From: Candidatus Micrarchaeota archaeon
GTDB taxonomy: Archaea > Micrarchaeota > Micrarchaeia > Anstonellales > Bilamarchaeaceae
NCBI GenBank assembly: GCA_023129075.1
Contig: JAGMCT010000002.1
Coordinates: 67,077 to 131,076 of the forward strand
Direction: 5' to 3'
Length of the DNA: 64,000 nt
Shown here: positions 4,171 through 52,335 of the stretch, piece by piece
Numbering within the stretch: the stretch's first letter is position 1
Layout: each line of letters starts with the position of its first letter
Position numbers and translations under genes: made by a program
Notes under the pieces: generated by a model
What the model saw: the letters and a program-made list of their open reading frames with translations, nothing else
The model's database searches: none
What the model was told of the DNA's origin: nothing

Positions 4171-4911
4171 TTGAAAATAAAAAAAGGTGAAAGTGTGACA
4201 GAAGATATATCAAATATACAGGAAGAAAAAGTAGGGGAAAGCCCTGAAGAGAAACCAGAAGAAAAGATTGAGGAAAAAGCCGAGGAAAACCTTGAAGAGA
4301 AATCGGAAGAGATATCAGTAGAACAACCAACGGAGGAAACATCAGTAGAAACAGAAGAAACACCAGAGGAAAAACCAGAAGAAAACCCTGAAGAAAAGAC
4401 AGAAGAAACACCAGCAGAGCCAGTAGAAACACCAACGGAGGAAACATCAGTAGAAACAGAAGGAACAGAAGGAACAGAAGGAACATCAGAAGAAAAAGCT
4501 GAGGAAACACCAGAAACACCAGAAGAAAAACCAGAGGAAAAAGCTGAGGAAACACCAGCAGAAACACCAGAAACATCAGAAGAAAAACCAGAAGAAAAAG
4601 CCGAGGAAACACCAGAAACATCAGAAGAAAAACCAGAAGAAAAGATTGAAGAAAAAGCCGAGGAAACACCAGAAACACAAGAAACACCAGAGGAAAAACC
4701 AGAAGAAAGAAAAGATTTTGGGGGCATCCCTTGTCCTGTTAGAGTTGGTGACGAAGTAGAGGTAACCATTGAAGCAGTTGGTGCCAAAGGAGACGGCATT
4801 GCTAAGAAAGATGGTTTCGTTATTTTTGTTGCAAATGCACAAAAGGACGAGAATGTAAAGGTAAAAATTACAGAATTAAAAAGAACATTTGCCTTAGGTC
4901 AAAAACTCTGA
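4171..4911 (+). CDS. TRAM-domain protein with a long N-terminal acidic E/P/K/T-rich tandem-repeat region
   Basis: C-terminal TRAM fold motif GDEVEVTIEAVGAKGDGIAKKDGFVIFVANAQKDENVKVKITELKRTFALG. The N-terminus has EEKPEEKAEETPET repeats encoded by tandem DNA repeats. Confidence 0.7.
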   Translation: MKIKKGESVTEDISNIQEEKVGESPEEKPEEKIEEKAEENLEEKSEEISVEQPTEETSVETEETPEEKPEENPEEKTEETPAEPVETPTEETSVETEGTEGTEGTSEEKAEETPETPEEKPEEKAEETPAETPETSEEKPEEKAEETPETSEEKPEEKIEEKAEETPETQETPEEKPEERKDFGGIPCPVRVGDEVEVTIEAVGAKGDGIAKKDGFVIFVANAQKDENVKVKITELKRTFALGQKL

Positions 4912-4968: not shown

Positions 4969-5520
4969 ATGGGTATGTTAATGGATCCATATGATGAATT
5001 GGATAAGATAAGAAGAAGAATGAAGAAACTTTTTGGCTCTGAACACGAAGTCGGAATTCTTACAGCACACAGAGGTTTTGTTGCTCCTTCCGTGGAGATA
5101 AGTAAGAAAGGAGGAAAACTGATTGTTACTGCAAGATTACCAAAAGTAAGCGGAAAAGATATTGACATAAAGGTTACAGATGATGAGATTGTGATAAGAG
5201 GGGAAGAAAAAAAGACAAAAGCAGGAAAGAGTAAAGGAAAAATTTATTCGGAAACAAAAGAATCCATGTTTTATACTGCGATGTCTCTTCCTGAAAAGGT
5301 AGACCCAAAAACAGCCAGAGCGGAATTTAAGAACGGAATTTTGACTGTAACAATGAAACCAAAAAAGAAAACATTGGTTATGAAAGAGACTCCAAAAAGA
5401 AAAACAAAGAAAACCACAAAAAAGAGAGCAAAGAAAACCACAAAAAAGAGAGCAAAGAAAACCACAAAAAAGAGAGCAAAGAAAACCACAAAAAAGAGAA
5501 AAACAAGAAAAAAGAGATAA
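4969..5520 (+). CDS. Small heat-shock protein (Hsp20/alpha-crystallin) with a C-terminal basic KKTTKKRA tandem-repeat tail
   Basis: ACD motifs (PSVEISKKGGKLIVTARLPKV, AEFKNGILTVTMPKK). The tail consists of 4x KKTTKKRAK. Confidence 0.75.
   Translation: MGMLMDPYDELDKIRRRMKKLFGSEHEVGILTAHRGFVAPSVEISKKGGKLIVTARLPKVSGKDIDIKVTDDEIVIRGEEKKTKAGKSKGKIYSETKESMFYTAMSLPEKVDPKTARAEFKNGILTVTMKPKKKTLVMKETPKRKTKKTTKKRAKKTTKKRAKKTTKKRAKKTTKKRKTRKKR
5411..5505. repeat. 27-bp coding tandem repeat (~3.5 units) encoding KKTTKKRAK inside the sHSP gene
   Basis: The unit aaaccacaaaaaagagagcaaagaaaa repeats with a 27-nt period. Confidence 0.85.
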
Positions 5521-7914: not shown

Positions 7915-7939
7915 GTTTTCTCCTTCTTTGAAAATGGAT

Positions 7940-8040
7940 GGGCCTGTGGAGATTTGAACTCCAGACCTTCGGCTGTCTTAGACCTATATTAGAGGAGGCC
8001 ATATAAGACCGGCGCTCTAACCAGCCTGAGCTACAGGCCC
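7940..8040 (-). tRNA. Intron-containing tRNA of Ile/Met type whose deduced spliced anticodon is UAU (tRNA-Ile(UAU)). The 27-nt intron lies at the canonical 37/38 position
   Basis: Reverse complement GGGCCTGTAGCTCAGGCTGGTTAGAGCGCCGGTCTTATA[TGGCCTCCTCTAATATAGGTCTAAGAC]AGCCGAAGGTCTGGAGTTCAAATCTCCACAGGCCCA. Acceptor and T arms are perfect. The anticodon stem is CCGGU/GCCGA with one C.A mismatch. The D-arm is near-identical to the CAU tRNA at 42251. Confidence 0.6.
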
Positions 8041-21506: not shown

Positions 21507-21622
21507 TTAGTAATTTCATCATTTTCTTTTAAATTCCTATGCACATTTTATTACTTTTATTATAACCTATTAGCAAACATTTAAATACTTAAATTGCGTA
21601 ATTAGTACACTGGTGATGTTTT

Positions 21623-22636
21623 ATGGTTAAAAAAAGGAAACTGGTTAAAGGCAGGAGTCCGAAATCAGCACCGCGTACTGGTGCCTCTCAGCATTCGTCA
21701 CGTCCACCTTCTAAATCAGCAAAAAAAAGGTCTTCTATTTCCCCTAAAGCTGGAAAGATGCTGAAAAAGAAAATAAAGAGTAAGGTACTGGGAGCAGGAA
21801 AGGTTAAGAAAACCATTAAGAAAACCGTAAAGAAAGTAAAAACCACCAGGAAGATAAAAATAACATCACTCAAAAAGAAAGGAAAAACAGCAAAGAAGAT
21901 GGGGAGAGCAGGGAAAACAACAAAGAAACTAAAAAAAATAATAAAAAAAATAAAAAAAATAAAGAAATCTATAAAAAAAATAAAAACAGTAAAAAAATCA
22001 ATAAGAAAGCCAATAAAATCAAAGAGAATAAAGAAACTCAAGACTAAAAAACAAAGAAAGTCCATTGTAAAAAAACCAAAAATAAAAAAAATAACCAAGA
22101 AAAAGGCAAAGGAACTGCTAAAGAAAAAGGTTCCTAAGCCGAACCTTGAACTGCTGAAAAGACTTTCTGAACCAAAGGTAAGGGAAGCACTGGTGGAACA
22201 TGCGGGTGAGAATGCGCTTCCACTTCTTAAGTCTTTTGAAGGTTCTACAAGCGATGATGAGCTCTCCAAAACCTTGAAGATAAAGATAAGTGATGTTCGT
22301 GCAGCGCTTAACAAGTTGCATACTCTCGGCATAGTCCGCTATAATAGAACCAGAGATACTGAAACAGGGTGGTTTTCCTACTTCTGGACTATTAATTCGC
22401 AGAAGATGAATGAATGGTCGGAGACTGTGCAGGAAAAACATGAAAAAGAATTTGTACTTCCTGAAGGAGACCATTATTTCTGTCCAAAATGCAAAAGGGA
22501 TAGCATCCATAATTTTGACAGCGCTTCTGAGTATGGTTTTAGATGCCCTCTCTGCAGTTCTTCACTTGATTTCCTTGAGGAAAAGCATATCCCTAAGTTA
22601 TTTGGGGAGATTGTTCCTAAAAGGATGAGGTTATAA
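21623..22636 (+). CDS. tfe: Transcription factor E (TFE alpha, TFIIE-alpha homologue) fused to a ~170-aa N-terminal lysine-rich histone-H1/SPKK-like extension
   Basis: The C-terminal 165 aa has the TFE winged helix (ELSKTLKIKISDVRAALNKLHTLGIVRY) and a Zn ribbon (CPKCK...CPLC). The N-terminus has KKIKKIKKSIKKIK... and SPKS/SPKA motifs. Confidence 0.7.
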   Translation: MVKKRKLVKGRSPKSAPRTGASQHSSRPPSKSAKKRSSISPKAGKMLKKKIKSKVLGAGKVKKTIKKTVKKVKTTRKIKITSLKKKGKTAKKMGRAGKTTKKLKKIIKKIKKIKKSIKKIKTVKKSIRKPIKSKRIKKLKTKKQRKSIVKKPKIKKITKKKAKELLKKKVPKPNLELLKRLSEPKVREALVEHAGENALPLLKSFEGSTSDDELSKTLKIKISDVRAALNKLHTLGIVRYNRTRDTETGWFSYFWTINSQKMNEWSETVQEKHEKEFVLPEGDHYFCPKCKRDSIHNFDSASEYGFRCPLCSSSLDFLEEKHIPKLFGEIVPKRMRL

Positions 22637-22638
22637 TC

Positions 22639-23022
22639 GTGGCAAAGAAACCCGAACTGAATGTGTATACTGTTCCTTTTTTTAATGAAAAAATACTTGT
22701 TCTGAAAAGACATAATGGAATATGGGAGTTCCCAGGAGGGGGCGTTGTTTTCGGAGAAAAACCAGAACAGACTGCATTAAGGGAACTAAAGGAGGAAACA
22801 AGCCTAAGCGGAAAGAACCTTTCCTTCCTTGGGATTACCTCAGCAGTATACGAAAAGGATGAAAAGGAAAAGCACTCGGTATATTTAGTATATAAGTGCA
22901 GTGTTGATTCTGATGCTTATTCTACCTCTCTTGAGCATGAAGAAGGAAGATGGCTTACTATTAATGAATTGAAATATCTCAAATTAGGGCTTAATGTTGA
23001 ACCAATTCTGGATATGCTGTAA
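22639..23022 (+). CDS. Nudix hydrolase (GTG start)
   Basis: Nudix box GGGVVFGEKPEQTALRELKEETSL. Confidence 0.8.
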   Translation: MAKKPELNVYTVPFFNEKILVLKRHNGIWEFPGGGVVFGEKPEQTALRELKEETSLSGKNLSFLGITSAVYEKDEKEKHSVYLVYKCSVDSDAYSTSLEHEEGRWLTINELKYLKLGLNVEPILDML

Positions 23023-36212: not shown

Positions 36213-36725
36213 ATGTTAATCGTTTTAAGACTGGGACACAGGCTTCCAAGAGATGAAAGAATAACCACACATGTCTGTCTTGTTGCAAGGGCTTTTGGTG
36301 CTGATGAGATTATTTATTCTGGACAGAAAGACAAAGGTCTTGAGAAATCAGTAAAAAAAATTGTTTCCGATTGGGGGGGAAATTTTAAGATTGGATACAC
36401 AGAAGACCCCGTTGGATTAATAAAAGAATTCAAGGAAAAAGATTTTTACATACTCCATCTTACGATGTATGGTTTTGGAATGGAAGAGATGAAAAAAGAG
36501 AAAGGCAGGAACACCCTCATAATCATAGGCGGAGGAAAGGTTCCTTCAGAGGTTTACGGACTTGCTGATTTTAATATTTCAATAACAAACCAGCCGCATT
36601 CCGAAGTTGCTGCTCTTGCAATTACGCTTGACCGTTTATTTAAAGGAAAAGAATTGAAATTAGAATTCAAGGGAAAGAAAAGAATAGTTCCCTCTGCGAG
36701 AGGGAAAAAGCTCACTGAATTTTGA
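36213..36725 (+). CDS. trm56: tRNA (cytidine56-2'-O)-methyltransferase aTrm56 (SPOUT)
   Basis: N-terminal LRLGHRLPRDERITTHVCLVARAFGADEIIY is the aTrm56 signature. About 170 aa. Confidence 0.8.
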   Translation: MLIVLRLGHRLPRDERITTHVCLVARAFGADEIIYSGQKDKGLEKSVKKIVSDWGGNFKIGYTEDPVGLIKEFKEKDFYILHLTMYGFGMEEMKKEKGRNTLIIIGGGKVPSEVYGLADFNISITNQPHSEVAALAITLDRLFKGKELKLEFKGKKRIVPSARGKKLTEF

Positions 36726-40101: not shown

Positions 40102-41385
40102 ATGCTTCTAAGCGTTAAGTATGCACCATCAAAACTTGATGAGATTATAGGAAATGTCAGTGTTAAAGAGGTTGTGCAGAAATGGATGCTTAATTGGATT
40201 AGGGGCAGGGTCCAGAAGCCGGTTTTGATTTACGGCCCCCCTGGAATAGGTAAAACAGCCATTGCCTATGCTCTGAAAAAAGAGCACGACCTTGAACTTA
40301 TTGAGATGAATGCAGGCGATTTCAGGAACAAAGAAAACATAAATCGTATCCTTAACAATTCTATGCTTGCTTCAACAATAAGCGGAAAGAAAAGATTTGT
40401 TTTGATAGATGATGTGGATGCTATGAGCAGGGAAGATGCCGGGGGAGTTTCGGCCATTGTTTCATTTCTTAAGAACAGCCCCCACCCCGTAATGCTGACA
40501 GCCATAGACGGATGGAACAGGAAGATAAGCTCTTTGAGGTCTCACTGCCAGCTGTTGGATATGAAGAGGCCTCCGAAACCCACTATTCTTAAATATTTGG
40601 AGAAGATTGCCAAGAAAGAAAAGATTGAGATTACTAATGAGCTTCTTCATGAAATTGTGGATTCTAATCATGGGGATGTCAGGGCTTGTCTTGTTGACCT
40701 TGAAGCAGGAATGAGTTTCAAAAGGGACAGGGATGAAAATATATTTGAGATAATGAGGAAGCTTTTTTCAGGCAGGGATTATTATGAGGTAAGAAACCTT
40801 ACATATGGAACCATTGACCATAATTATCTCAAGTTATGGATAGATGAGAATCTTCCTGCGCAGTATTCAGAAAGACAGCTTGCAGAAGCGTATGATGTTT
40901 TTTCCAGAGCGGATGTTTTTGACGGGCGTATAAGAAAAAGAAATTACTGGGGTTTTCTCAGGTATTCCAGTGATTTGATGACTTCTGGTGTTTCCTTTGT
41001 TGGATTTGAGAATCCACCAAAGTTCGTAAGATATTCATTTCCGAATTATCTAAGGAAGATGGGTGCAACAGTTTCTTCAAGAGCCAAGATGAAATCAATC
41101 CTAAAAAGGATTGCAGGGATTTCGCATACCTCCTCAAAAAGATGCAGGGATTATGTTTATGTTCTTGCAAACCTTGTTCATAAGCACGGAGAGAATGCAG
41201 TTGATTTTTACAGATTAGAAGAAAACGAGCTTGATTTTCTAAAATCTTTTTATAAAATACCTAAAAAACCCAAGAAAAAGCCAAAGAAAACAGAGAAAAA
41301 ATCTGAGAAAGCAGGGGAAAAGAAGAAAAGAGAACCTGAGAAAAAGAAATCCTTAGGGTCTTCTACTCTTCATGAGTTTTTCTGA
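40102..41385 (+). CDS. rfcL: Replication factor C large subunit
   Basis: AAA+ LIYGPPGIGKTAIAYALKKEH. The DEVD-type box is VLIDDVDAM. A C-terminal K-rich tail ends in the PIP-like STLHEFF. Confidence 0.85.
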   Translation: MLLSVKYAPSKLDEIIGNVSVKEVVQKWMLNWIRGRVQKPVLIYGPPGIGKTAIAYALKKEHDLELIEMNAGDFRNKENINRILNNSMLASTISGKKRFVLIDDVDAMSREDAGGVSAIVSFLKNSPHPVMLTAIDGWNRKISSLRSHCQLLDMKRPPKPTILKYLEKIAKKEKIEITNELLHEIVDSNHGDVRACLVDLEAGMSFKRDRDENIFEIMRKLFSGRDYYEVRNLTYGTIDHNYLKLWIDENLPAQYSERQLAEAYDVFSRADVFDGRIRKRNYWGFLRYSSDLMTSGVSFVGFENPPKFVRYSFPNYLRKMGATVSSRAKMKSILKRIAGISHTSSKRCRDYVYVLANLVHKHGENAVDFYRLEENELDFLKSFYKIPKKPKKKPKKTEKKSEKAGEKKKREPEKKKSLGSSTLHEFF

Positions 41386-42250: not shown

Positions 42251-42378
42251 GCCAAGGTAGCTCAGTCTGGTTAGAGCGCCAGACTCATAAGGGATTATGA
42301 GTTCTGAGGCAAATGCCTATGATTGAATAGGCGCTCTGAGTAATCTGGAGGTCGGGGGTTCGAAGCCCCCTCTTGGCA
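42251..42378 (+). tRNA. Intron-containing tRNA with anticodon CAU (elongator tRNA-Met, or tRNA-Ile2 if the UAU tRNA call is wrong). The intron is ~55 nt in the anticodon loop
   Basis: GCCAAGGTAGCTCAGTCTGGTTAGAGCGCCAGACTCATA[...intron...]ATCTGGAGGTCGGGGGTTCGAAGCCCCCTCTTGGCA. Anticodon stem CCAGA/UCUGG. T-arm GGGGG-TTCGAAG-CCCCC. No archaeal-initiator features (no A1:U72, no triple GC in the anticodon stem). Confidence 0.75.
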
Positions 42379-44359: not shown

Positions 44360-45673
44360 TTAATTCCGATAATCAAATCCAAATAACCCAACCAGCAAAA
44401 GAAATGCAAGAGGAATACTGCACACATCATTAAAATTGTTCAAATCAACACTACCTTCTCCTATCTTTTCAATAGCAATCTCACTTTTTGATTTTCCTTT
44501 TTTTTCTATAATTATACTTCCATCTATTTCATTGTAACCAGTTTTAATCATAAAAGGAATCGTATGTATAAAATTATCCTCAAGCGCACTCTCATTTATT
44601 TCATAATAAACTGTTTTTAGTTCTCCAGGATTCATGAGAATAAAACTGTAATCATTCCCGTGCACATTTTCATCTATTACAAGTTTCATACATACCGGCA
44701 GATATCTATTCTTTGTATTTTTCATATAAATTTCAAGTTTCTGTTCTGTTGATTCATACACAAAGTCTATATCTATTGGCCCGTCTCTTTCATAGCTGTT
44801 TAATTCTGTTATTTTAACATCACTTTCCATTTCGAACCTGCCTCCCCTTGCACTCATCTGGTCCCCCATCTTTTTCTGGTCTTCTGCATTTGCCATTGCA
44901 ATATGCTCCCCGCTTAGGATACCCATCTCAAAAAATGTTGGGTCAACCGAAATCCATTTTCCATCAATCTTTATTTCTGCCCATGAATGAGACTGCCATC
45001 CTTCCTCCCCTTTTACATATCCTGATACTACATTACCTTCAAATCCTATGCTCTTTGCAAGCGCCAGGAACAGGTGTGAATATTCAACACACACACCCTT
45101 CTTATCCTGAAAGATTTTTTCCGCAGATTCAAATGTTCCCCAATACCCAAGGTCATACTCAAGATTATTGTGCACCCACTCAATAAGTTTTCCTGCAGTA
45201 TCCACCTGCCCTTCTGCTTCCCTTGTTATCTCAATTGCTTTCTGCTGCATTTCCTCAGTATATAAAGTCAGACCGCTTCCATTTACCGGTTTTCCACCCA
45301 ATTCAGGATTCTGCTCAAATCCATCTTCATATTCAATCTCAACCAGACCCCATACCCAAACCTGTTTTTCATCTTCCACCTCTGGAATCTCAAAGATTAC
45401 TCTTATTTCTGTATTATTCCTTTCAAACCTGCATTCATCAGAACATTTCATTTCAATTACTTTTTGGTACGAGGTATTAAGCAAAAAAATAGCATCTATT
45501 TCTATATCACTGATTTTTTCATCAGTCTTTATATTTATTGTTTTATTTATTTCTGCTTTCATATATCCTGTGTTTGCCACTATTATTGTTATAACCAGAA
45601 AAAGCATGAGGACTCTTTTCATGACTTTCTTTTTTTCTTTTCTCCTTTTAATTCTTTCTTTTTCTTTCTCCAC
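44360..45673 (-). CDS. Secreted/membrane-anchored transglutaminase-like cysteine-protease-fold enzyme. An alternative start at M 45622 would give a 4-nt overlap with the giant-gene stop
   Basis: Catalytic-core pattern GVCVEYSHLFLALAKSIG...SHSWAEIKIDGKWISVDPT (Cys-His-Asp). N-terminal signal anchor. Confidence 0.65.
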   Translation of the reverse strand: MEKEKERIKRRKEKKKVMKRVLMLFLVITIIVANTGYMKAEINKTINIKTDEKISDIEIDAIFLLNTSYQKVIEMKCSDECRFERNNTEIRVIFEIPEVEDEKQVWVWGLVEIEYEDGFEQNPELGGKPVNGSGLTLYTEEMQQKAIEITREAEGQVDTAGKLIEWVHNNLEYDLGYWGTFESAEKIFQDKKGVCVEYSHLFLALAKSIGFEGNVVSGYVKGEEGWQSHSWAEIKIDGKWISVDPTFFEMGILSGEHIAMANAEDQKKMGDQMSARGGRFEMESDVKITELNSYERDGPIDIDFVYESTEQKLEIYMKNTKNRYLPVCMKLVIDENVHGNDYSFILMNPGELKTVYYEINESALEDNFIHTIPFMIKTGYNEIDGSIIIEKKGKSKSEIAIEKIGEGSVDLNNFNDVCSIPLAFLLLVGLFGFDYRN

Positions 45674-48600
45674 AACAACAGCACCATAAAAAATATTATT
45701 TCAACATCAAGCATTGAGCAGGGATTGAATATATTGCCTGCCAGCCAGTTTCCATACAAGCTCCATCCAAATAGGAACGGAAGCGAGAATAATATCGGAA
45801 TAAATAGAATACCAATTCCAAGCATGCGCCCTTTCTTTTTCTTGTATTTCCTGCCCAGCAGATGTAAATTGAGAATAAATAGAATAACCATAGCAGTCCA
45901 CAGAATCCATGCACTGCTTTTTGGTATGTTATACAGCCCAAGACACAAAGGCCCTGAGCACATTCTCTCAAACTCACCTATAGATAACCCCTCATCCATT
46001 ATTGCATATCCGTCTTTATGTGCCTGCACAAGGTATTCCCCAGGTTCGCTGAAAGTAAGATATATCTCTCCCTTTTCATTTGTCTGGTATTCAACCTTCC
46101 CAAGACACATAGGTCCGGTACAAATCTTTGCGGTTTCCAGTTTTCCTGCTTCATCTGTTACTATGTATCCTCCATACTCGTCAAGGGTTATATAAGCCCC
46201 TTCTTTCTCAAATGTGTACCCCACCCTGTTTATCACCACAACAGCATTTGGAATTGGATTTCCTTTACTGTCTACAATAACAATCCAGGTCCTTTCATTA
46301 AGATAAATTTCATCCTCTGTTTGCACAAAACCTTTTCTTATTATCTCAAAAATCTTTTTCAGATCAAGATAGTTCTCCTTTTCTACGATTATTTCTCCTT
46401 TATATGAAATTATTACCCTTGCAATTCCCCCCTCACCAGCATAAGTATCAGTATCTTCATTATAAACATGTGCAAAAGGAACAGGCTCCCCCCTATTATT
46501 TATAATCTCCATTATTACTGTTTTTCCTTCAATAAGCTCCCCTTCAATTATCTTTAAATCCATCTCCTTTGGAACGCATGAATTATTTATGCAGAATTCT
46601 GTTTCCTTACATTCATAACCAGGTATTCCTTCACAGCACTCGTATTCTCTGCAGTCGTGGTTAAGTATGATTCCGCAAGCACAATCTATCTCAATACACA
46701 TACCTTCATTACAGTATTCATTCCATTCACAATCTCCATTCTCCTCGCATTCTATACACACTTCATCACAGAGATTGCTTTTGCACATTGCATTCCTTTC
46801 GCAGTCCTCTTCCAGTTCTCTTTTCTCTTCGCATATTATACCATTACAAAATTCGTCCTCTGCACAATCACTGTCATTGTAGCACTGAGGTATTACCTCA
46901 AAATAAAATTCATAATAATCATCGGCCCTTCCATTATCTGCAAGAACCTTAATTAGATATTCCCCCAACTCAGTTGGATAAACACCAAGCGCAATCTCTC
47001 CACTCTCCTTCTTTTCTATTTCCTGTATGAGCCCATCGCTTCCTGTTATTGACGGCGGGGTTACAAGCTCAACAAATATATCTTTTTCATCATAATTCCC
47101 AGTATTTTCTATAACCACAGCAACCAAGGTATTCTTGTATATTATTCCTTCCTCCGGTTCCGCAGAAATTATCTCTATCTTATGCTTCTTTTTATGGTCT
47201 TCTTCCCCCCCTGCTTCCTCAAGCGTTACATACCATGTTTGGTTAACCTCTTCATAAAGCGTTTCCAGCACCACCACAATTTCATATTCCTGAAGCGCAA
47301 GTCCATCCACATTCCATGCATATGTGCTCGTATCATTGGTTCCTGATGTTTCATTGTACTCAGCACCATCTACATACCACCTAATTACTACTTCGCTTGA
47401 ATTTTCATAGGTGATTATGAAATCCTGCACATCTGAATTCTCTATTGTTATATTTATTGGCGTGTCTCTCTCATAATCTCTTGTCCCCATATTCTCATCA
47501 GGATAAACAGTCAATATTCTTACACTCAGCGGAATATCACAGCTGTCCTTATATCCATCATCATCCATATCTGCAAATAAGCAGGTCCACTTCTCTCCGT
47601 TCGTTCCGGTTCCCTGGGCCGTAAGATTTGCACACAGGAAGAACACTTTTGATGCTGAGCTTACCTCATCCCCTTCAGCATCCGTCACGTTAATATAAAG
47701 CTCATACATTTCATCCTGCGCAGGTGCATTTATGGTTCCAGAGCATTCTACTCTGTCTGTCCCCACAACCACTGCAGGCAGATTCCCTGCAAGCTGGTCT
47801 ACCCCCCCGCTTTTCTTATAATACACCTGGCAGTTCGCTATCACTGTTGAGTCATCCGTCCTAAACTGTGCACTCACATCAATTGTATCGCTTATATTAT
47901 ACCAGACATCACTCAGGCTGAATGAACCGCTTACATATGCAGGCTTCAAATCCACAACAAACGAAGTTGTATTCATAAGCCCATAATTCCCTGCAGGGTC
48001 TCTTGCCCTTACACTCACATAATAGGTTCCGTCATCCACCATACTCCCTATATTGAATTTACAATTAGAGTCATAGGTTTCTCCAATAGAATATCCCCCC
48101 GGCCCTGTTGCATTATAATAACACCCATAAATCTCCCCGTCATGGAAGTTCGTATTTGCAGTATCACTGTCATTTGCAAGAACCCCCATCCATACTGCTC
48201 CATTATACACAATTTCGTCCTTAACACCCGGTTCTGTAACTATCCTCGTTATATTCGGCGCATCATCATCCAATATTAAATAATACGGGAAATTCTCTGA
48301 TGTTGCTCCCCCAGGATTGATGCTGTGCGAATACTCAAATTTCTTATAACTCCCAACATCAGCATAGCTGTAAGCAGAGGTTGTTGGAATCCTTATCGTC
48401 ACATCAAACCCATTATAGGTTGTTCCCAGGTGGTCATCATCCCATAATTTAATTACAGCCTGCCCTGCATTATCCTCATAAGAAAATGTTTCAAATATTC
48501 CTGCATCCGGCCCTTCTTTTGTCATCCCGGCCAGGTTCAATCCCTGCCCGTGCGAAAGCCCAAACCCATTTTTATTTCCAATAAACATCTTCACCTGGTC

Positions 48601-51600
48601 AAAACTCTCTGTGCTTGTAAGCCTTATCAAAAAGTCATTTCCTGTCCGCACCCTTCTCGGATAAGTCATGGTTACCTGGTTCCCTGGGCCTCCATATGTC
48701 ACAGTAATATTCTGCTCATCATATAATGTCCCATGCAGTGTTGAATCCACCCTGCATACAACATCATTTACACAATCACCATCAACACAATCCACAACTC
48801 CATCCCCATCATTATCAACATCATCATTGCATGTTGCTTCTGCAGGATTTTCGCATGCTCCTATTCCATTACAGTTTGCGTCTGCACAATCCGCATTCCC
48901 ATCATTATCATTATCCGCCCCATCAGAACAGAAATATGCATTGTTCTCATTTCCTCCAGCCACACAAATATGTGCATCGTAATCCACCAGCCATCCTACA
49001 CAATTTGTATCTCCACAATCAGTTCCCCCGCCATCAAACCTATCATAATCATTATCAAAACTATCCGCACATGAATCCCAGCTCACATTCTCTTCATCCG
49101 GGCACGGTCCGCAGTAGTCAAACTGCTGCCAGCAGTCCAAGTCATCACAGTCCGCTTTCACAGGAGGATAGGTTCCTTTATAAACATCTGTCGGCAGTGG
49201 GTCATCGTCCACCCCATTCTCACAATACGTCCAGTTCCTAAGCAGATTGTTAAAGAAAGGAGTCGCCCCAGTCGGGTCATATTCCATGTCAAGACACATC
49301 TCAAACGGATTGTTCGGATTCTGAACCCCTGTACAATTCATATCCCCGCAGTCAACCCCTCCAGATGCATTCACAATCCACGGACCACCTCCCCAAAAGT
49401 TTGCAGGATTTGTCCATTTATATGCATCCATATCATTATCCACATCATCAAAACACCATGAATCCTGAACATTTTCAACTGCAGGAACCGCCCCATCAAA
49501 CTGGCAGTCATAATCATCATAATCTCCATCATTTACGTATACAATCCCATAATACGCCAGATAAGCAGAAGGATTGTTTCCCCATCCAGGATTCGGCATC
49601 CCGCCTGCATTCCCATCATAATCATTATCAAATCCATCATTACAGGTAAGCTCTCTGCTCAATTCACAGGTATTTCCGCCTCCCATTACCGTAGTGTTGC
49701 AATCCTCATCCGGATACCTGTCGCTTCCATACCCGTAATAACCTCCCCATTCACAATCCATTCCTGCCCCATAACTATTGTTTATTGCATACCCAAATAT
49801 TCCTGCTTCCAGCCATTTATCCCAGTCATTATCTACACCATCATCACACTGCACCCCAACTTCAGTAAATATAGTAAAGTTCTGCTGGCAGAAAAACCTG
49901 CAGTCATACTCTGCATCATTATATCCACCCCCTCCCTGCAATTGACAATCCAATAAATTATACATATCATTATCAAAATTGTCATCACACGTAAGTTCTC
50001 TTCCATACTCACACCTATGATAAGGAGGAGTAGGCTCTGTCACCAAGTTGCAGTCCAAATCCCTGCAGTCCACCAAACTCAATCCTGGATTCACATGCCC
50101 CCAATTCGAATCCTCCATAGCCCAGTCATTATTATACTCATCAAAACAACTCTCATTCCCCAGCAGTTCACTTGCATAACCGCACAGCCCATAGGTAAAT
50201 GCACCAATATAATCATTCCATGCAGAAGGCCCCCAGCTTGCATTACAATCCAAATCATAACAATCATAAGAAGACTCGTAAAAACAATTCTGCTCATTCC
50301 CTGCACAGTTCAGATAATCAAAGTCTGCATTCTCAGTATCGTTGCATGAGCCCCAGTTCACCCCCTCAACCCAGATATCATCCTCATGTTCATTTGTTGA
50401 GTTCCATTTTCCCCCAGGGCTTCCCCCATAGCTCTCATTATCAAAATAAATAGGCACACTAACTGTTTCAGAATATACTGTAATCCCCTGCACATATGTC
50501 ACAGTAATATTTATCTCATACCCCTGGCTCATATCTATTGAACCCGGGTCCGCAAAACTCAAGTTGAATGTTGTATCTATCTTTGCAATCGTCTGGTCAT
50601 TGTCAAATGATTTTAGTATAACCTCATTCTGCCTTGTGTTCGCAGGCCCAAGAGAATCTGTTAATATAGGATTACTATTCTTATCAATAAAATAAAGCAG
50701 TTTCCCTTCATTTGCTGTCGCTCCCGGCGCATACTTATTAACCTGCTCAATATCCGGGAACCCCTCAACATTTACTGTTGTAAGATAACTATTTCCTGCA
50801 TTTATCTGCCATGCCCTAATTCTCATCTTGAATGTTCCGTCCGGCATTGAATGCATAGTATACCATATATTAGTGCTGAATGTTACTGCAGTGCTCTGCT
50901 CCTTTCCAATATCCCCAGCAGGTATATTTACAGCCAGCGTTCCATGCGAACCCGAAGGAGAATAATACAAACTTGAATTAGCAAATGCCTGTTTCACCAA
51001 ACAAGAATATGTAATCCCCCTGCAGTCCGAATCAAAGCAGTCCACAAAGGTATCATCCTCAGCAAAATCCGCAAACCCAGGCGCCCCAATTGCAGAATCT
51101 ACCCCATCATTGCACCATTCCTCCACAGAAATCCCATTATATTTTGTAACAGAATAGGTAACATCCCCAGGCCCATCCGCCTTTACAGTATTCCTAAAAT
51201 ACTGCGCCTCAATACTCTTTCCGTTGAATGCATTTGCTATATCCGCAGAGCTCCAGTTCAAAGGATGCACATGTATTCTCCAGTTTGTCTTATAGCTCTC
51301 TTTTACTGTTCCCCCTCCATCTATTACCTCGCATTTATCTATCTCCCACGGCACATAAATAGAGGTATTCCCTCCCATGCTTGTATTTATGGAATCCGTT
51401 ATCTGCAGGGAATAATTAAGCGAAACATTCTCACTATTTATCCCCCCCGCCCCAATGGTTCTGTTCAGGAAAAATCTTGTGCAGCTGCTGTTGTAAGGAT
51501 GGTCCCCGCAGTCCGACTGATTTATCCAGCATCCAACTTTATCCCCGGCATTCGCAGTCATATTTTCCAATATAATAGTAAAATTATACTTCAACCCTTC

Positions 51601-52335
51601 TCCAGTATGCGGGTCCCCTGCATCATATGCATAATAAACTCCCTCAGGAAATGTTGTATTCTTTTCTATACATTCATACTGAACATCTGCAAAGAGCCAG
51701 TAATCCACTGTCTGCCCTGCAAGGCTTCCATTCACCGGAAGTATGAGCTGGTAATCGCTTGTTGTTCCGTTCCAATCCGGCTTATCATCCTCATATGTTG
51801 CAGAAAGCACAAACCTATTTTCTGCATCCTGTAGATATCCTGCCCTGAAAATACCTGGTTTGGTATATGCAGAGGGAACATTACTCACTTCCCCAAAGCT
51901 GAAATTAAATGTTGAGACAAAAGTAAATGTATTGCTCGCATTATCCGCATCTGTTCCCGCGTTCATAAAAGCATTAAGTGCAATGAGATTTCCTGCACTA
52001 AAAGGAGTTGCTGCACTGCTTTCATTTACTGCATAGATAGTAACATTAATTATATTATAACCTGTTATTACGCCCCCGACCGCAGGACAATCCGGCTCTT
52101 TTGCCGTCACATCCAAATAGGTTATGTTCTCTCCTTCAGCCAGCACATGATAGTAATCCGGCCCACCACCTATTGAGATATTCCCATAAAAACCAGCCCA
52201 TCTCTGCGTAGTATCATTTCCCTGAAGGTTTACTGCAGTTATATTTCCCCCCTCAGTCAAATCTACATTCGCCCCATAAAGTAGAGAACAGAGCAGCACA
52301 AACACCAATACAAATCGCATGCCTGCATATTGCAT
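45619..52335 (-). CDS. Giant (2238 aa) secreted cell-surface protein. It has an N-terminal shared domain, extensive Cys/Asp-rich TSP3-like putative Ca-binding repeats (CxDxxDNDxDG...DCxDxDC), a C-terminal Cys-rich EGF-like cluster, and 3-4 C-terminal TM helices plus a poly-K tail
   Basis: Single uninterrupted ORF. Signal peptide MRFVLVFVLLCSLLYGA. At least 9 CxDGxDNDxD repeats. C-terminal TMs (ILWTAMVILFILNLHLL, GIGILFIPILFSLPFLFGWSL, IIFFMVLLLW). Confidence 0.75.
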   Translation of the reverse strand: MQYAGMRFVLVFVLLCSLLYGANVDLTEGGNITAVNLQGNDTTQRWAGFYGNISIGGGPDYYHVLAEGENITYLDVTAKEPDCPAVGGVITGYNIINVTIYAVNESSAATPFSAGNLIALNAFMNAGTDADNASNTFTFVSTFNFSFGEVSNVPSAYTKPGIFRAGYLQDAENRFVLSATYEDDKPDWNGTTSDYQLILPVNGSLAGQTVDYWLFADVQYECIEKNTTFPEGVYYAYDAGDPHTGEGLKYNFTIILENMTANAGDKVGCWINQSDCGDHPYNSSCTRFFLNRTIGAGGINSENVSLNYSLQITDSINTSMGGNTSIYVPWEIDKCEVIDGGGTVKESYKTNWRIHVHPLNWSSADIANAFNGKSIEAQYFRNTVKADGPGDVTYSVTKYNGISVEEWCNDGVDSAIGAPGFADFAEDDTFVDCFDSDCRGITYSCLVKQAFANSSLYYSPSGSHGTLAVNIPAGDIGKEQSTAVTFSTNIWYTMHSMPDGTFKMRIRAWQINAGNSYLTTVNVEGFPDIEQVNKYAPGATANEGKLLYFIDKNSNPILTDSLGPANTRQNEVILKSFDNDQTIAKIDTTFNLSFADPGSIDMSQGYEINITVTYVQGITVYSETVSVPIYFDNESYGGSPGGKWNSTNEHEDDIWVEGVNWGSCNDTENADFDYLNCAGNEQNCFYESSYDCYDLDCNASWGPSAWNDYIGAFTYGLCGYASELLGNESCFDEYNNDWAMEDSNWGHVNPGLSLVDCRDLDCNLVTEPTPPYHRCEYGRELTCDDNFDNDMYNLLDCQLQGGGGYNDAEYDCRFFCQQNFTIFTEVGVQCDDGVDNDWDKWLEAGIFGYAINNSYGAGMDCEWGGYYGYGSDRYPDEDCNTTVMGGGNTCELSRELTCNDGFDNDYDGNAGGMPNPGWGNNPSAYLAYYGIVYVNDGDYDDYDCQFDGAVPAVENVQDSWCFDDVDNDMDAYKWTNPANFWGGGPWIVNASGGVDCGDMNCTGVQNPNNPFEMCLDMEYDPTGATPFFNNLLRNWTYCENGVDDDPLPTDVYKGTYPPVKADCDDLDCWQQFDYCGPCPDEENVSWDSCADSFDNDYDRFDGGGTDCGDTNCVGWLVDYDAHICVAGGNENNAYFCSDGADNDNDGNADCADANCNGIGACENPAEATCNDDVDNDGDGVVDCVDGDCVNDVVCRVDSTLHGTLYDEQNITVTYGGPGNQVTMTYPRRVRTGNDFLIRLTSTESFDQVKMFIGNKNGFGLSHGQGLNLAGMTKEGPDAGIFETFSYEDNAGQAVIKLWDDDHLGTTYNGFDVTIRIPTTSAYSYADVGSYKKFEYSHSINPGGATSENFPYYLILDDDAPNITRIVTEPGVKDEIVYNGAVWMGVLANDSDTANTNFHDGEIYGCYYNATGPGGYSIGETYDSNCKFNIGSMVDDGTYYVSVRARDPAGNYGLMNTTSFVVDLKPAYVSGSFSLSDVWYNISDTIDVSAQFRTDDSTVIANCQVYYKKSGGVDQLAGNLPAVVVGTDRVECSGTINAPAQDEMYELYINVTDAEGDEVSSASKVFFLCANLTAQGTGTNGEKWTCLFADMDDDGYKDSCDIPLSVRILTVYPDENMGTRDYERDTPINITIENSDVQDFIITYENSSEVVIRWYVDGAEYNETSGTNDTSTYAWNVDGLALQEYEIVVVLETLYEEVNQTWYVTLEEAGGEEDHKKKHKIEIISAEPEEGIIYKNTLVAVVIENTGNYDEKDIFVELVTPPSITGSDGLIQEIEKKESGEIALGVYPTELGEYLIKVLADNGRADDYYEFYFEVIPQCYNDSDCAEDEFCNGIICEEKRELEEDCERNAMCKSNLCDEVCIECEENGDCEWNEYCNEGMCIEIDCACGIILNHDCREYECCEGIPGYECKETEFCINNSCVPKEMDLKIIEGELIEGKTVIMEIINNRGEPVPFAHVYNEDTDTYAGEGGIARVIISYKGEIIVEKENYLDLKKIFEIIRKGFVQTEDEIYLNERTWIVIVDSKGNPIPNAVVVINRVGYTFEKEGAYITLDEYGGYIVTDEAGKLETAKICTGPMCLGKVEYQTNEKGEIYLTFSEPGEYLVQAHKDGYAIMDEGLSIGEFERMCSGPLCLGLYNIPKSSAWILWTAMVILFILNLHLLGRKYKKKKGRMLGIGILFIPILFSLPFLFGWSLYGNWLAGNIFNPCSMLDVEIIFFMVLLLWRKKKKELKGEKKKRKS

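Follow-up and report, generated by a model that had tools for sequence, protein, structure and literature searches.

Transcription factor E with a predicted disordered polybasic tail, an apparently phylum-wide trait of Micrarchaeota

TFE/TFIIE is among the few transcription initiation factors common to archaea and eukaryotes, and how transcription factor E (TFE) works has been established for only a few cultured members of the Euryarchaeota and Crenarchaeota. As a family trait, TFE-alpha binds the clamp and stalk of RNA polymerase (RNAP) and stimulates open-complex formation. The protein described here is a TFE of a Candidatus Micrarchaeota archaeon, encoded in positions 67,077 to 131,076 of contig JAGMCT010000002.1 (assembly GCA_023129075.1); this whole stretch of 64,000 nucleotides is called the window below. 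Extended winged helix and four-Cys zinc ribbon are common to the window protein and to archaeal TFE-alpha (1Q1H, 6PLN/6XJF, 6KF4 chain G, M. jannaschii), with 26–30% identity in structural and sequence alignments. Compared with the characterised TFEs, it has 175 extra residues at the N-terminus, with a net charge of +78. A partial likeness is found in Thermococcales, whose TFE-alpha bears a disordered tail that is short and basic (the P. furiosus 6pln_A sequence closes with ...KPKKATRRKKSRSGKK); according to passages of PMC7704642, the C-terminal tail of T. kodakarensis TFE is disordered in cryo-electron microscopy. The Thermococcales tail differs in being C-terminal, only about 40 residues long and moderately charged. 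No function assigned to it was found in the literature consulted.

The features of the TFE gene are as follows, in window coordinates (nt, nucleotides; aa, amino acid residues).
21580..21587, plus strand: TATA-box-like TTTAAATA, 36 nt upstream of the start codon (read from the sequence).
21595..21603, plus strand: TGCGTAAT-type element between TATA box and Shine-Dalgarno sequence (recurrence upstream of TFE).
21612..21617, plus strand: Shine-Dalgarno sequence GGTGAT, 5 nt before ATG 21623 (complementary to the archaeal 16S 3' end).
21623..22636, plus strand: complete TFE gene, 337 aa and stop, ATG start (open reading frame, profile matches, PDB sequence matches).
21623..22147, plus strand: polybasic N-terminal extension, aa 1–175, predicted disordered (composition, AlphaFold2 confidence).
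21914..22008, plus strand: A-rich tandem DNA repeat inside the tail, period 9 and 30, AAAAAAAAT (Tandem Repeats Finder).
21920..22003, plus strand: amphipathic K/I segment, aa 100–127, TKKLKKIIKKIKKIKKSIKKIKTVKKSI (hydrophobic moment, AlphaFold2).
22148..22417, plus strand: TFE-alpha extended winged-helix domain, aa 176–265 (PF02002, PDB sequence matches, AlphaFold2 confidence above 90, Foldseek).
22472..22567, plus strand: zinc ribbon, aa 284–315, with Cys287, Cys290, Cys308 and Cys311 (alignments, AlphaFold2 strands at aa 284–297).

Residues 176–337 form a TFE-alpha core, on domain, zinc-ribbon and fold evidence alike. Pfam PF02002 (TFIIE_alpha) matches aa 187–264 with E=1.1e-14 and 54.6 bits, against a gathering score of 22.9. 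The 'transcription factor E' models TIGR00373 and PRK06266 (NCBIfam) match aa 179–323 at E ~1e-25 and are covered over their full length. The scores lie under the strict equivalog cut-offs of TIGR00373 and NF004910 (90.1 versus 149.5 and 88.3 versus 180 bits, respectively); such E-values with full-length coverage of equivalog models point to a divergent TFE orthologue, not to a different family. Sequence matches in the PDB are T. kodakarensis TFE 6kf4_G (8e-17), P. furiosus 6pln/6xjf and S. solfataricus 1q1h. In all four solved TFEs the first residue aligns with query aa 176–178, which places the boundary between extension and core at about aa 175/176. The AlphaFold2 model, built from 23 relatives, has a predicted local distance difference test score (pLDDT) above 90 over aa ~170–330. 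Foldseek against the PDB returns TFE-alpha 6kf4_G, 6xjf and 6pln as top matches, followed by yeast and human TFIIE-alpha. Cysteines 287, 290, 308 and 311 are invariant across the alignment of the 23 relatives, and the zinc-ribbon stretch aligns to the ribbons of the T. kodakarensis (6kf4_G) and P. furiosus (6pln_A) TFEs. An earlier reading, made from the letters of the window alone (the sequence-only reading), had recognised a C-terminal TFE with winged helix and zinc ribbon in this open reading frame and had stated that canonical TFE has no such N-terminal extension. The frame proved exact, PF02002, PDB and Foldseek agree on its C-terminal part, and the alignment to characterised TFEs that the reading had proposed gave the boundary reported above and confirmed the statement on canonical TFE. 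As to copies per genome, the best 80 of 578 species-genome loci belong to 80 different genomes, none being represented twice.

Lys makes up 39% of the tail (aa 1–175) and Arg 6%, and a single acidic residue contrasts with 79 basic ones. The tail is otherwise rich in Ile, Thr, Ser and Val (Ile 10%; Ala and Pro 5% each). Disorder is predicted, pLDDT being below 50 for most of aa 1–160. SPKS is present at aa 12 and SPKA at aa 40, but a count of two [ST]P[KR] motifs does not clearly exceed what is expected by chance from the composition (P=0.05 for aa 1–50, P=0.14 for aa 1–175). Strict SPKK-type motifs, [ST]P[KR][KR], are absent from the tail. Pfam search with aa 1–175 alone at E<=10 gives noise only, with no linker-histone or other family, and the linker-histone globular domain GH1 (PF00538) is matched neither by the full protein nor by aa 1–175 alone at the same threshold. 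The sequence-only reading had called the N-terminal half Lys-rich, with SPKS and SPKA motifs, which holds, and histone-H1-like and SPKK-containing, of which the analogy of Lys-rich composition is retained; the SPKK label and a relationship to H1 are not, given the absence of strict SPKK and of any H1 family match and the low content of Ala and Pro. Nine runs of seven or more A occur in the DNA of the tail and, together with the A-rich tandem repeat, are consistent with tail growth by replication slippage. Residues 100–127 have a hydrophobic moment of 0.68 (110 degrees per residue) versus 0.22 +/- 0.11 in shuffles (P ~0.0005). AlphaFold2 places a helix at aa 100–118 with low confidence.

Reading frame and start signals indicate that in the window gene the tail is translated as one protein with the TFE core. 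Over the 525 nt of the tail no stop is found in frame, while the other two plus-strand frames carry 21 and 9, so chance in A-rich DNA does not account for the open frame. The Lys codons of the tail are ordinary (64% AAA versus 60% in ten other window genes). In-frame ATG, GTG or TTG codons are absent between codons 93 and 191. The next start candidate after Met93 is the GTG codon 191, which lies some 15 residues into the TFE homology; a core-only product can thus not be made by canonical initiation, and the most conservative start, Met93, would still leave a Lys-rich tail of 83 residues. Neither Met46 nor Met93 is preceded by a signal comparable to that ahead of Met1. An identical 337-aa protein, in the same Nre–TFE–NUDIX neighbourhood, is encoded on four contigs from separate assemblies, which argues against a homopolymer frameshift artefact; one exact copy of the protein is annotated from a Candidatus Micrarchaeota metagenome-assembled genome. 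Separate translation of tail and TFE, which the sequence-only reading had left as an option, is excluded for this gene, and a frameshift dividing the Lys-rich frame from TFE, which it had also considered, is not borne out.

The extension is not a peculiarity of this gene. It appears to be the usual state of TFE across Micrarchaeota, with C-terminal versions farther out. The first homology search, with the full-length protein, was biased by Lys-rich 5-mer words; it was not used for frequencies and was redone with the core only (aa 176–337). Exhaustive core-only HMMER search of 1.84 billion cluster representatives (50% identity) gave 684 relatives at E<=1e-3. The best 150 of the 684 were classed by the sequence outside the core, an N-extension being at least 30 aa with a net charge of at least +10. 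The fusion proposed for a search in relatives was found in 41 of the 45 closest representatives (>=120 bits); of the other four, one is tailed at the C-terminus and three are without a tail. N-extensions become less frequent with distance (18/26, 19/31 and 19/48 in the bands of lower score), where canonical TFEs of 170–190 aa dominate. The scan of GTDB species-representative genomes gave 578 TFE loci. The best 80 of these, on which DNA analysis was performed, are all from Micrarchaeota: Micrarchaeia, Bilamarchaeaceae, Anstonellaceae, Ca. Fermentimicrarchaeum limneticum (complete genome) and others. Direct analysis of the DNA, which does not depend on gene callers, shows 50–264 open codons upstream of the core at about 70 of 79 loci, with 25–50% Lys+Arg and a net charge of about +15 to +105; the other frames carry 2–20 stops. 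Across the phylum core identity falls to about 35% while the K/R-rich frame stays open.

Tails of relatives are about 25 to 260 residues long. Between subclades no tail alignment was found, and only the short junction motif PKPN-L/T-ELL is common with the nearest clade. In some clades the tail is rich in Arg, Ala, Ser and Pro, not in Lys (e.g., P0002, L066). What the relatives keep is a strong positive charge with hardly any acidic residues. Farther relatives bear a Lys-rich tail of 50–140 residues at the C-terminus instead; among TFEs of this kind, P0038 carries the NCBI label Nanoarchaeia. In a neighbour-joining tree built from 190 cores, which is crude and in which the state 'none' is partly a gene-calling artefact, 133 cores are scored as N-terminal, 16 as C-terminal and 41 as without tail, with at least 30 parsimony changes. 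C-terminal tails arise at several separate places; the nearest neighbour of P0191 (C-terminal tail, KKAP-type) is P0151 (N-terminal tail, 46% Lys). The distribution of tail states indicates recurrent gain or relocation, and tails at either terminus in close relatives suggest that charge matters rather than a particular sequence. As judged from these comparisons, the tail is a phylum-wide trait, conserved in charge and variable in sequence and length. It is an obligatory part of TFE in the lineage of the window gene, which is by itself ordinary for its phylum. Persistence across the phylum suggests that the tail is selected.

In many relatives an in-frame ATG lies about two codons ahead of the core, at the point from which a canonical TFE would start; it is probably the ancestral start. 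GGTGA stands ahead of such proximal starts at only 1 of 54 loci. The distal start, often TTG or GTG, has GGTGA(T) or GGTGG 3–6 nt ahead in most loci, with a TATA box about 25–35 nt further upstream; at most TFE loci of Micrarchaeota the distal start is preceded by a TTTAAATA/TTTATATA box. In the window gene and its closest relatives the proximal Met is gone altogether. At loci L016, L027, L037, L039, L042, L054 and L057 a TTG or GTG tail start behind GGTGAT is combined with an ATG adjoining the core. At such loci (e.g., L016, L037, L039, L042, L054) a gene caller with a preference for ATG would cut the annotated TFE down to canonical length, so database counts of 'no extension' are likely overestimates.

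The tail is read here, with somewhat better than even confidence, as a non-specific electrostatic nucleic-acid tether that would hold TFE on the nucleoid and add DNA contacts stabilising closed and open complexes. Passages of PMC13502027 and PMC7704642 place the TFE winged helix at the non-template strand and the upstream edge of the bubble. An arm of about +78 would retain TFE on the nucleoid, enrich it locally at promoters and speed its delivery to them. Leaving the N-terminus of the winged helix, near promoter DNA, the tail could grip the flanking promoter DNA and so stabilise pre-initiation and open complexes; in function such contacts would resemble the extra DNA contacts of TFE-beta/TFIIE-beta in other lineages. 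The tail probably originated when a start codon farther upstream was recruited, and then grew by slippage in A-rich repeats, as suggested by the proximal Met retained in relatives and by the period-9/30 repeat with its nine A runs. Overall, the evidence suggests DNA tethering, to which the sequence-only reading had also pointed, as the most plausible function. A wider proposal is put forward only tentatively and is rather unlikely: that in ultra-small DPANN archaea a selected TFE tail, gained repeatedly at either terminus, makes TFE nucleoid-resident, provides in cis a grip on promoter DNA such as TFE-beta/TFIIE-beta give in trans in other lineages, and renders initiation dependent on an electrostatic tether.

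Several points weigh against tethering. We infer the DNA-binding mechanism from charge and geometry alone. The tail is absent in a few Micrarchaeia TFEs (L061, L068, L069, L071, L073) and is thus not indispensable. Extension counts from protein databases hinge on the start choice of gene callers, which is partly controlled by the direct DNA analysis. Relatives with a Met next to the core may make a short isoform from an internal leaderless transcript. A Lys-rich tail is also present on a small heat-shock protein (sHSP) of the same window, so the lineage may merely tolerate or generate such tails, and not specifically on DNA-binding proteins. The sHSP and the gene upstream of it are as follows.
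4969–5520, plus strand: HSP20-family sHSP, domain aa 46–135, with a C-terminal (KKTTKKRAK)x4 tandem-repeat tail.
4171–4911, plus strand: TRAM-domain protein, domain aa 190–245, directly upstream of the K-tailed sHSP.

Both tailed proteins had been pointed out in the sequence-only reading and are present, the acidic extension of the TRAM protein being N-terminal. It is about 190 aa long, consists of PEEK/ETPE-type repeats and has a net charge of -53. Search with the sHSP core gave one relative only (69% identity), which has a Lys-rich tail of different sequence; this is too few to generalise.

The alternative that survives best, although we consider it unlikely, is non-adaptive low-complexity expansion, i.e., a tolerated by-product of slippage at the end of a protein, whose basic charge merely mirrors AAA/AAG-rich DNA. 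The A-rich tandem repeats and A runs of the tail are what such expansion would leave behind, tail length and sequence vary widely among relatives, some Micrarchaeia TFEs lack the tail, and the Lys-rich sHSP tail and acidic TRAM extension lie in the same window. It accounts less well for an open frame with strong positive charge and hardly any acidic residues across a phylum with cores of ~35% identity, for repeated tail gains at either terminus, and for a Shine-Dalgarno sequence maintained at the distal start; moreover, the Arg-rich, lower-Lys tails (P0002, L066) keep their charge even where codons are not A-rich.

An H1-like architectural role, in which TFE moonlights as a nucleoid compactor replacing chromatin proteins missing from a reduced genome, is improbable. 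The Lys content of 39% and net charge of +78 are comparable with the histone H1 C-terminal domain, and repeats of K/A/P type occur in some relatives, e.g., in the P0191 tail; yet no linker-histone globular domain or H1-like family is matched, strict SPKK is absent, and Ala and Pro amount to 5% each. A basal initiation factor would also not be expected to be abundant enough to coat the genome. Genes for histones, coiled-coil histones and Alba have been reported from Micrarchaeota (PMC6136690, PMC11390915), and the suggestion made from the sequence alone, that the tail substitutes for missing chromatin proteins, is correspondingly weak in view of the histones and Alba reported (PMC6136690).

Equally improbable is that the tail binds anionic membrane lipids, RNA or ribosomes instead of DNA, or that it drives self-association or condensates via an amphipathic K/I helix. 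Polybasic-plus-hydrophobic segments are classic membrane or RNA binders. Residues 100–127 are significantly amphipathic, with the weak AlphaFold2 helix at 100–118, and a similar tail is borne by the sHSP, which does not bind DNA. However, the amphipathic segment is specific to the window protein and is not conserved in tails of relatives, the TFE neighbours Nre and NUDIX give no hint of a membrane or ribosome function, and the TFE partners named in passages of PMC13502027 and PMC7704642 are RNAP and promoter DNA.

An artefact or two separate products (a mis-assembled or frameshifted fusion of a Lys-rich frame with TFE, or TFE made from an internal start) is highly improbable and for the window gene essentially refuted, since, although homopolymer A runs are error-prone in sequencing and many relatives retain the proximal Met, the identical frame recurs on four separately assembled contigs, about 70 other species have the same in-frame architecture, codons 93–191 offer no start, and the proximal Met of relatives has a Shine-Dalgarno sequence at only 1 of 54 loci.

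The finding points to an unstudied, apparently selected electrostatic part of promoter engagement in tiny-celled organisms with reduced genomes. A whole DPANN phylum appears to transcribe with a TFE bearing a tail of 50–260 residues and net charge +15 to +105, and other lineages bear a similar tail at the opposite end of TFE. No earlier description of a polybasic TFE extension in Micrarchaeota or DPANN was found in the open-access literature searched; a tail of this kind, present on a basal initiation factor throughout a phylum, conserved in charge and labile in position, appears to be undescribed. For annotation, it follows that gene callers sometimes choose an internal Met and truncate these TFEs. 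A neutral tail, on the other hand, would clearly exemplify low-complexity drift under a charge constraint in an essential factor.

The TGCGTAAT-type element between TATA box and Shine-Dalgarno sequence may be a TFE-specific promoter or operator element, judging by its recurrence. The arrangement TATA-N7/8-(T)G(C/A)G(C/T)(A/T)AAT is found upstream of TFE at 18 of 80 Micrarchaeota loci (L005–L056) and in the window; it is found nowhere else in 258 kb of those TFE loci. GCGTAAT occurs four times in the window. A second TTTAAATA-N9-GCGTAAT is located at 36644–36621, minus strand, inside the open reading frame 36213–36725.

The window has a G+C content of 38.5%. Archaeal genes in it include Nre, Cdc6/Orc1, Rpo7/E', an RFC-large-like AAA protein and ribosomal protein S26e. 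The gene next to TFE is probably co-transcribed with it, given the short distance between them.
22639–23022, plus strand: NUDIX hydrolase gene, GTG start 3 nt after the TFE stop.

The RFC-large-subunit-like AAA+ protein (40102–41385, plus strand) has a K/E-rich C-terminal stretch, KKPKKKPKKTEKKSEKAGEKKKREPEKKK, followed by a PIP-box-like STLHEFF ending. Two tRNA matches, at 42251–42378 (plus strand, 128 nt) and 7939–8040 (minus strand, 102 nt), were obtained with Rfam but not with ARAGORN and are probably intron-containing archaeal tRNAs. The last 11.5 kb of the window were considered as an anomaly free of open reading frames, which was rejected: a giant open reading frame runs from 52543 to beyond 64000 (plus strand), off the window end, and is hence unlisted. 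Its product exceeds 3,800 aa and has a signal peptide and N/S/T-rich, beta-helix-like repeats of 22–23 aa. Another giant protein, of 2,238 aa and very acidic (net charge -232), is encoded at 45619–52335 on the minus strand. Both giant genes look like those of DPANN-type giant surface proteins.

Among known systems, TFE-beta/TFIIE-beta gives extra DNA contacts that stabilise the pre-initiation complex beside TFE-alpha/TFIIE-alpha (PMC4495717), and an Arg/Lys-rich patch of TFIIE-beta has been modelled on DNA (PMC11293857). The tail of the window TFE could act analogously. It differs in that TFE-beta is a separate folded protein with winged helix and iron–sulfur cluster, whereas the tail is predicted to be disordered, is covalent to TFE-alpha and has no homology to TFE-beta. 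With the histone H1 C-terminal domain the tail has in common a Lys-rich, disordered, polycationic character and the expectation of DNA binding by charge. That domain is rich in Ala and Pro, whereas the tail is poor in both and rich in Ile, Thr, Ser and Val, with no strict SPKK and no globular domain; the resemblance to H1 is analogy, not homology. Mycobacterial HupB, chlamydial Hc1/Hc2 and Pseudomonas AlgP have Lys-rich, H1-like, low-complexity tails in which charge rather than sequence is conserved. None of them is a basal initiation factor; they are regulators or nucleoid proteins, and their repeats are typically K/A/P-based. In predicted disorder, charge and conservation of composition instead of sequence, the Micrarchaeota tail fits this class of polycationic disordered tails, which is defined by function and not by homology, and DNA binding is predicted for it.

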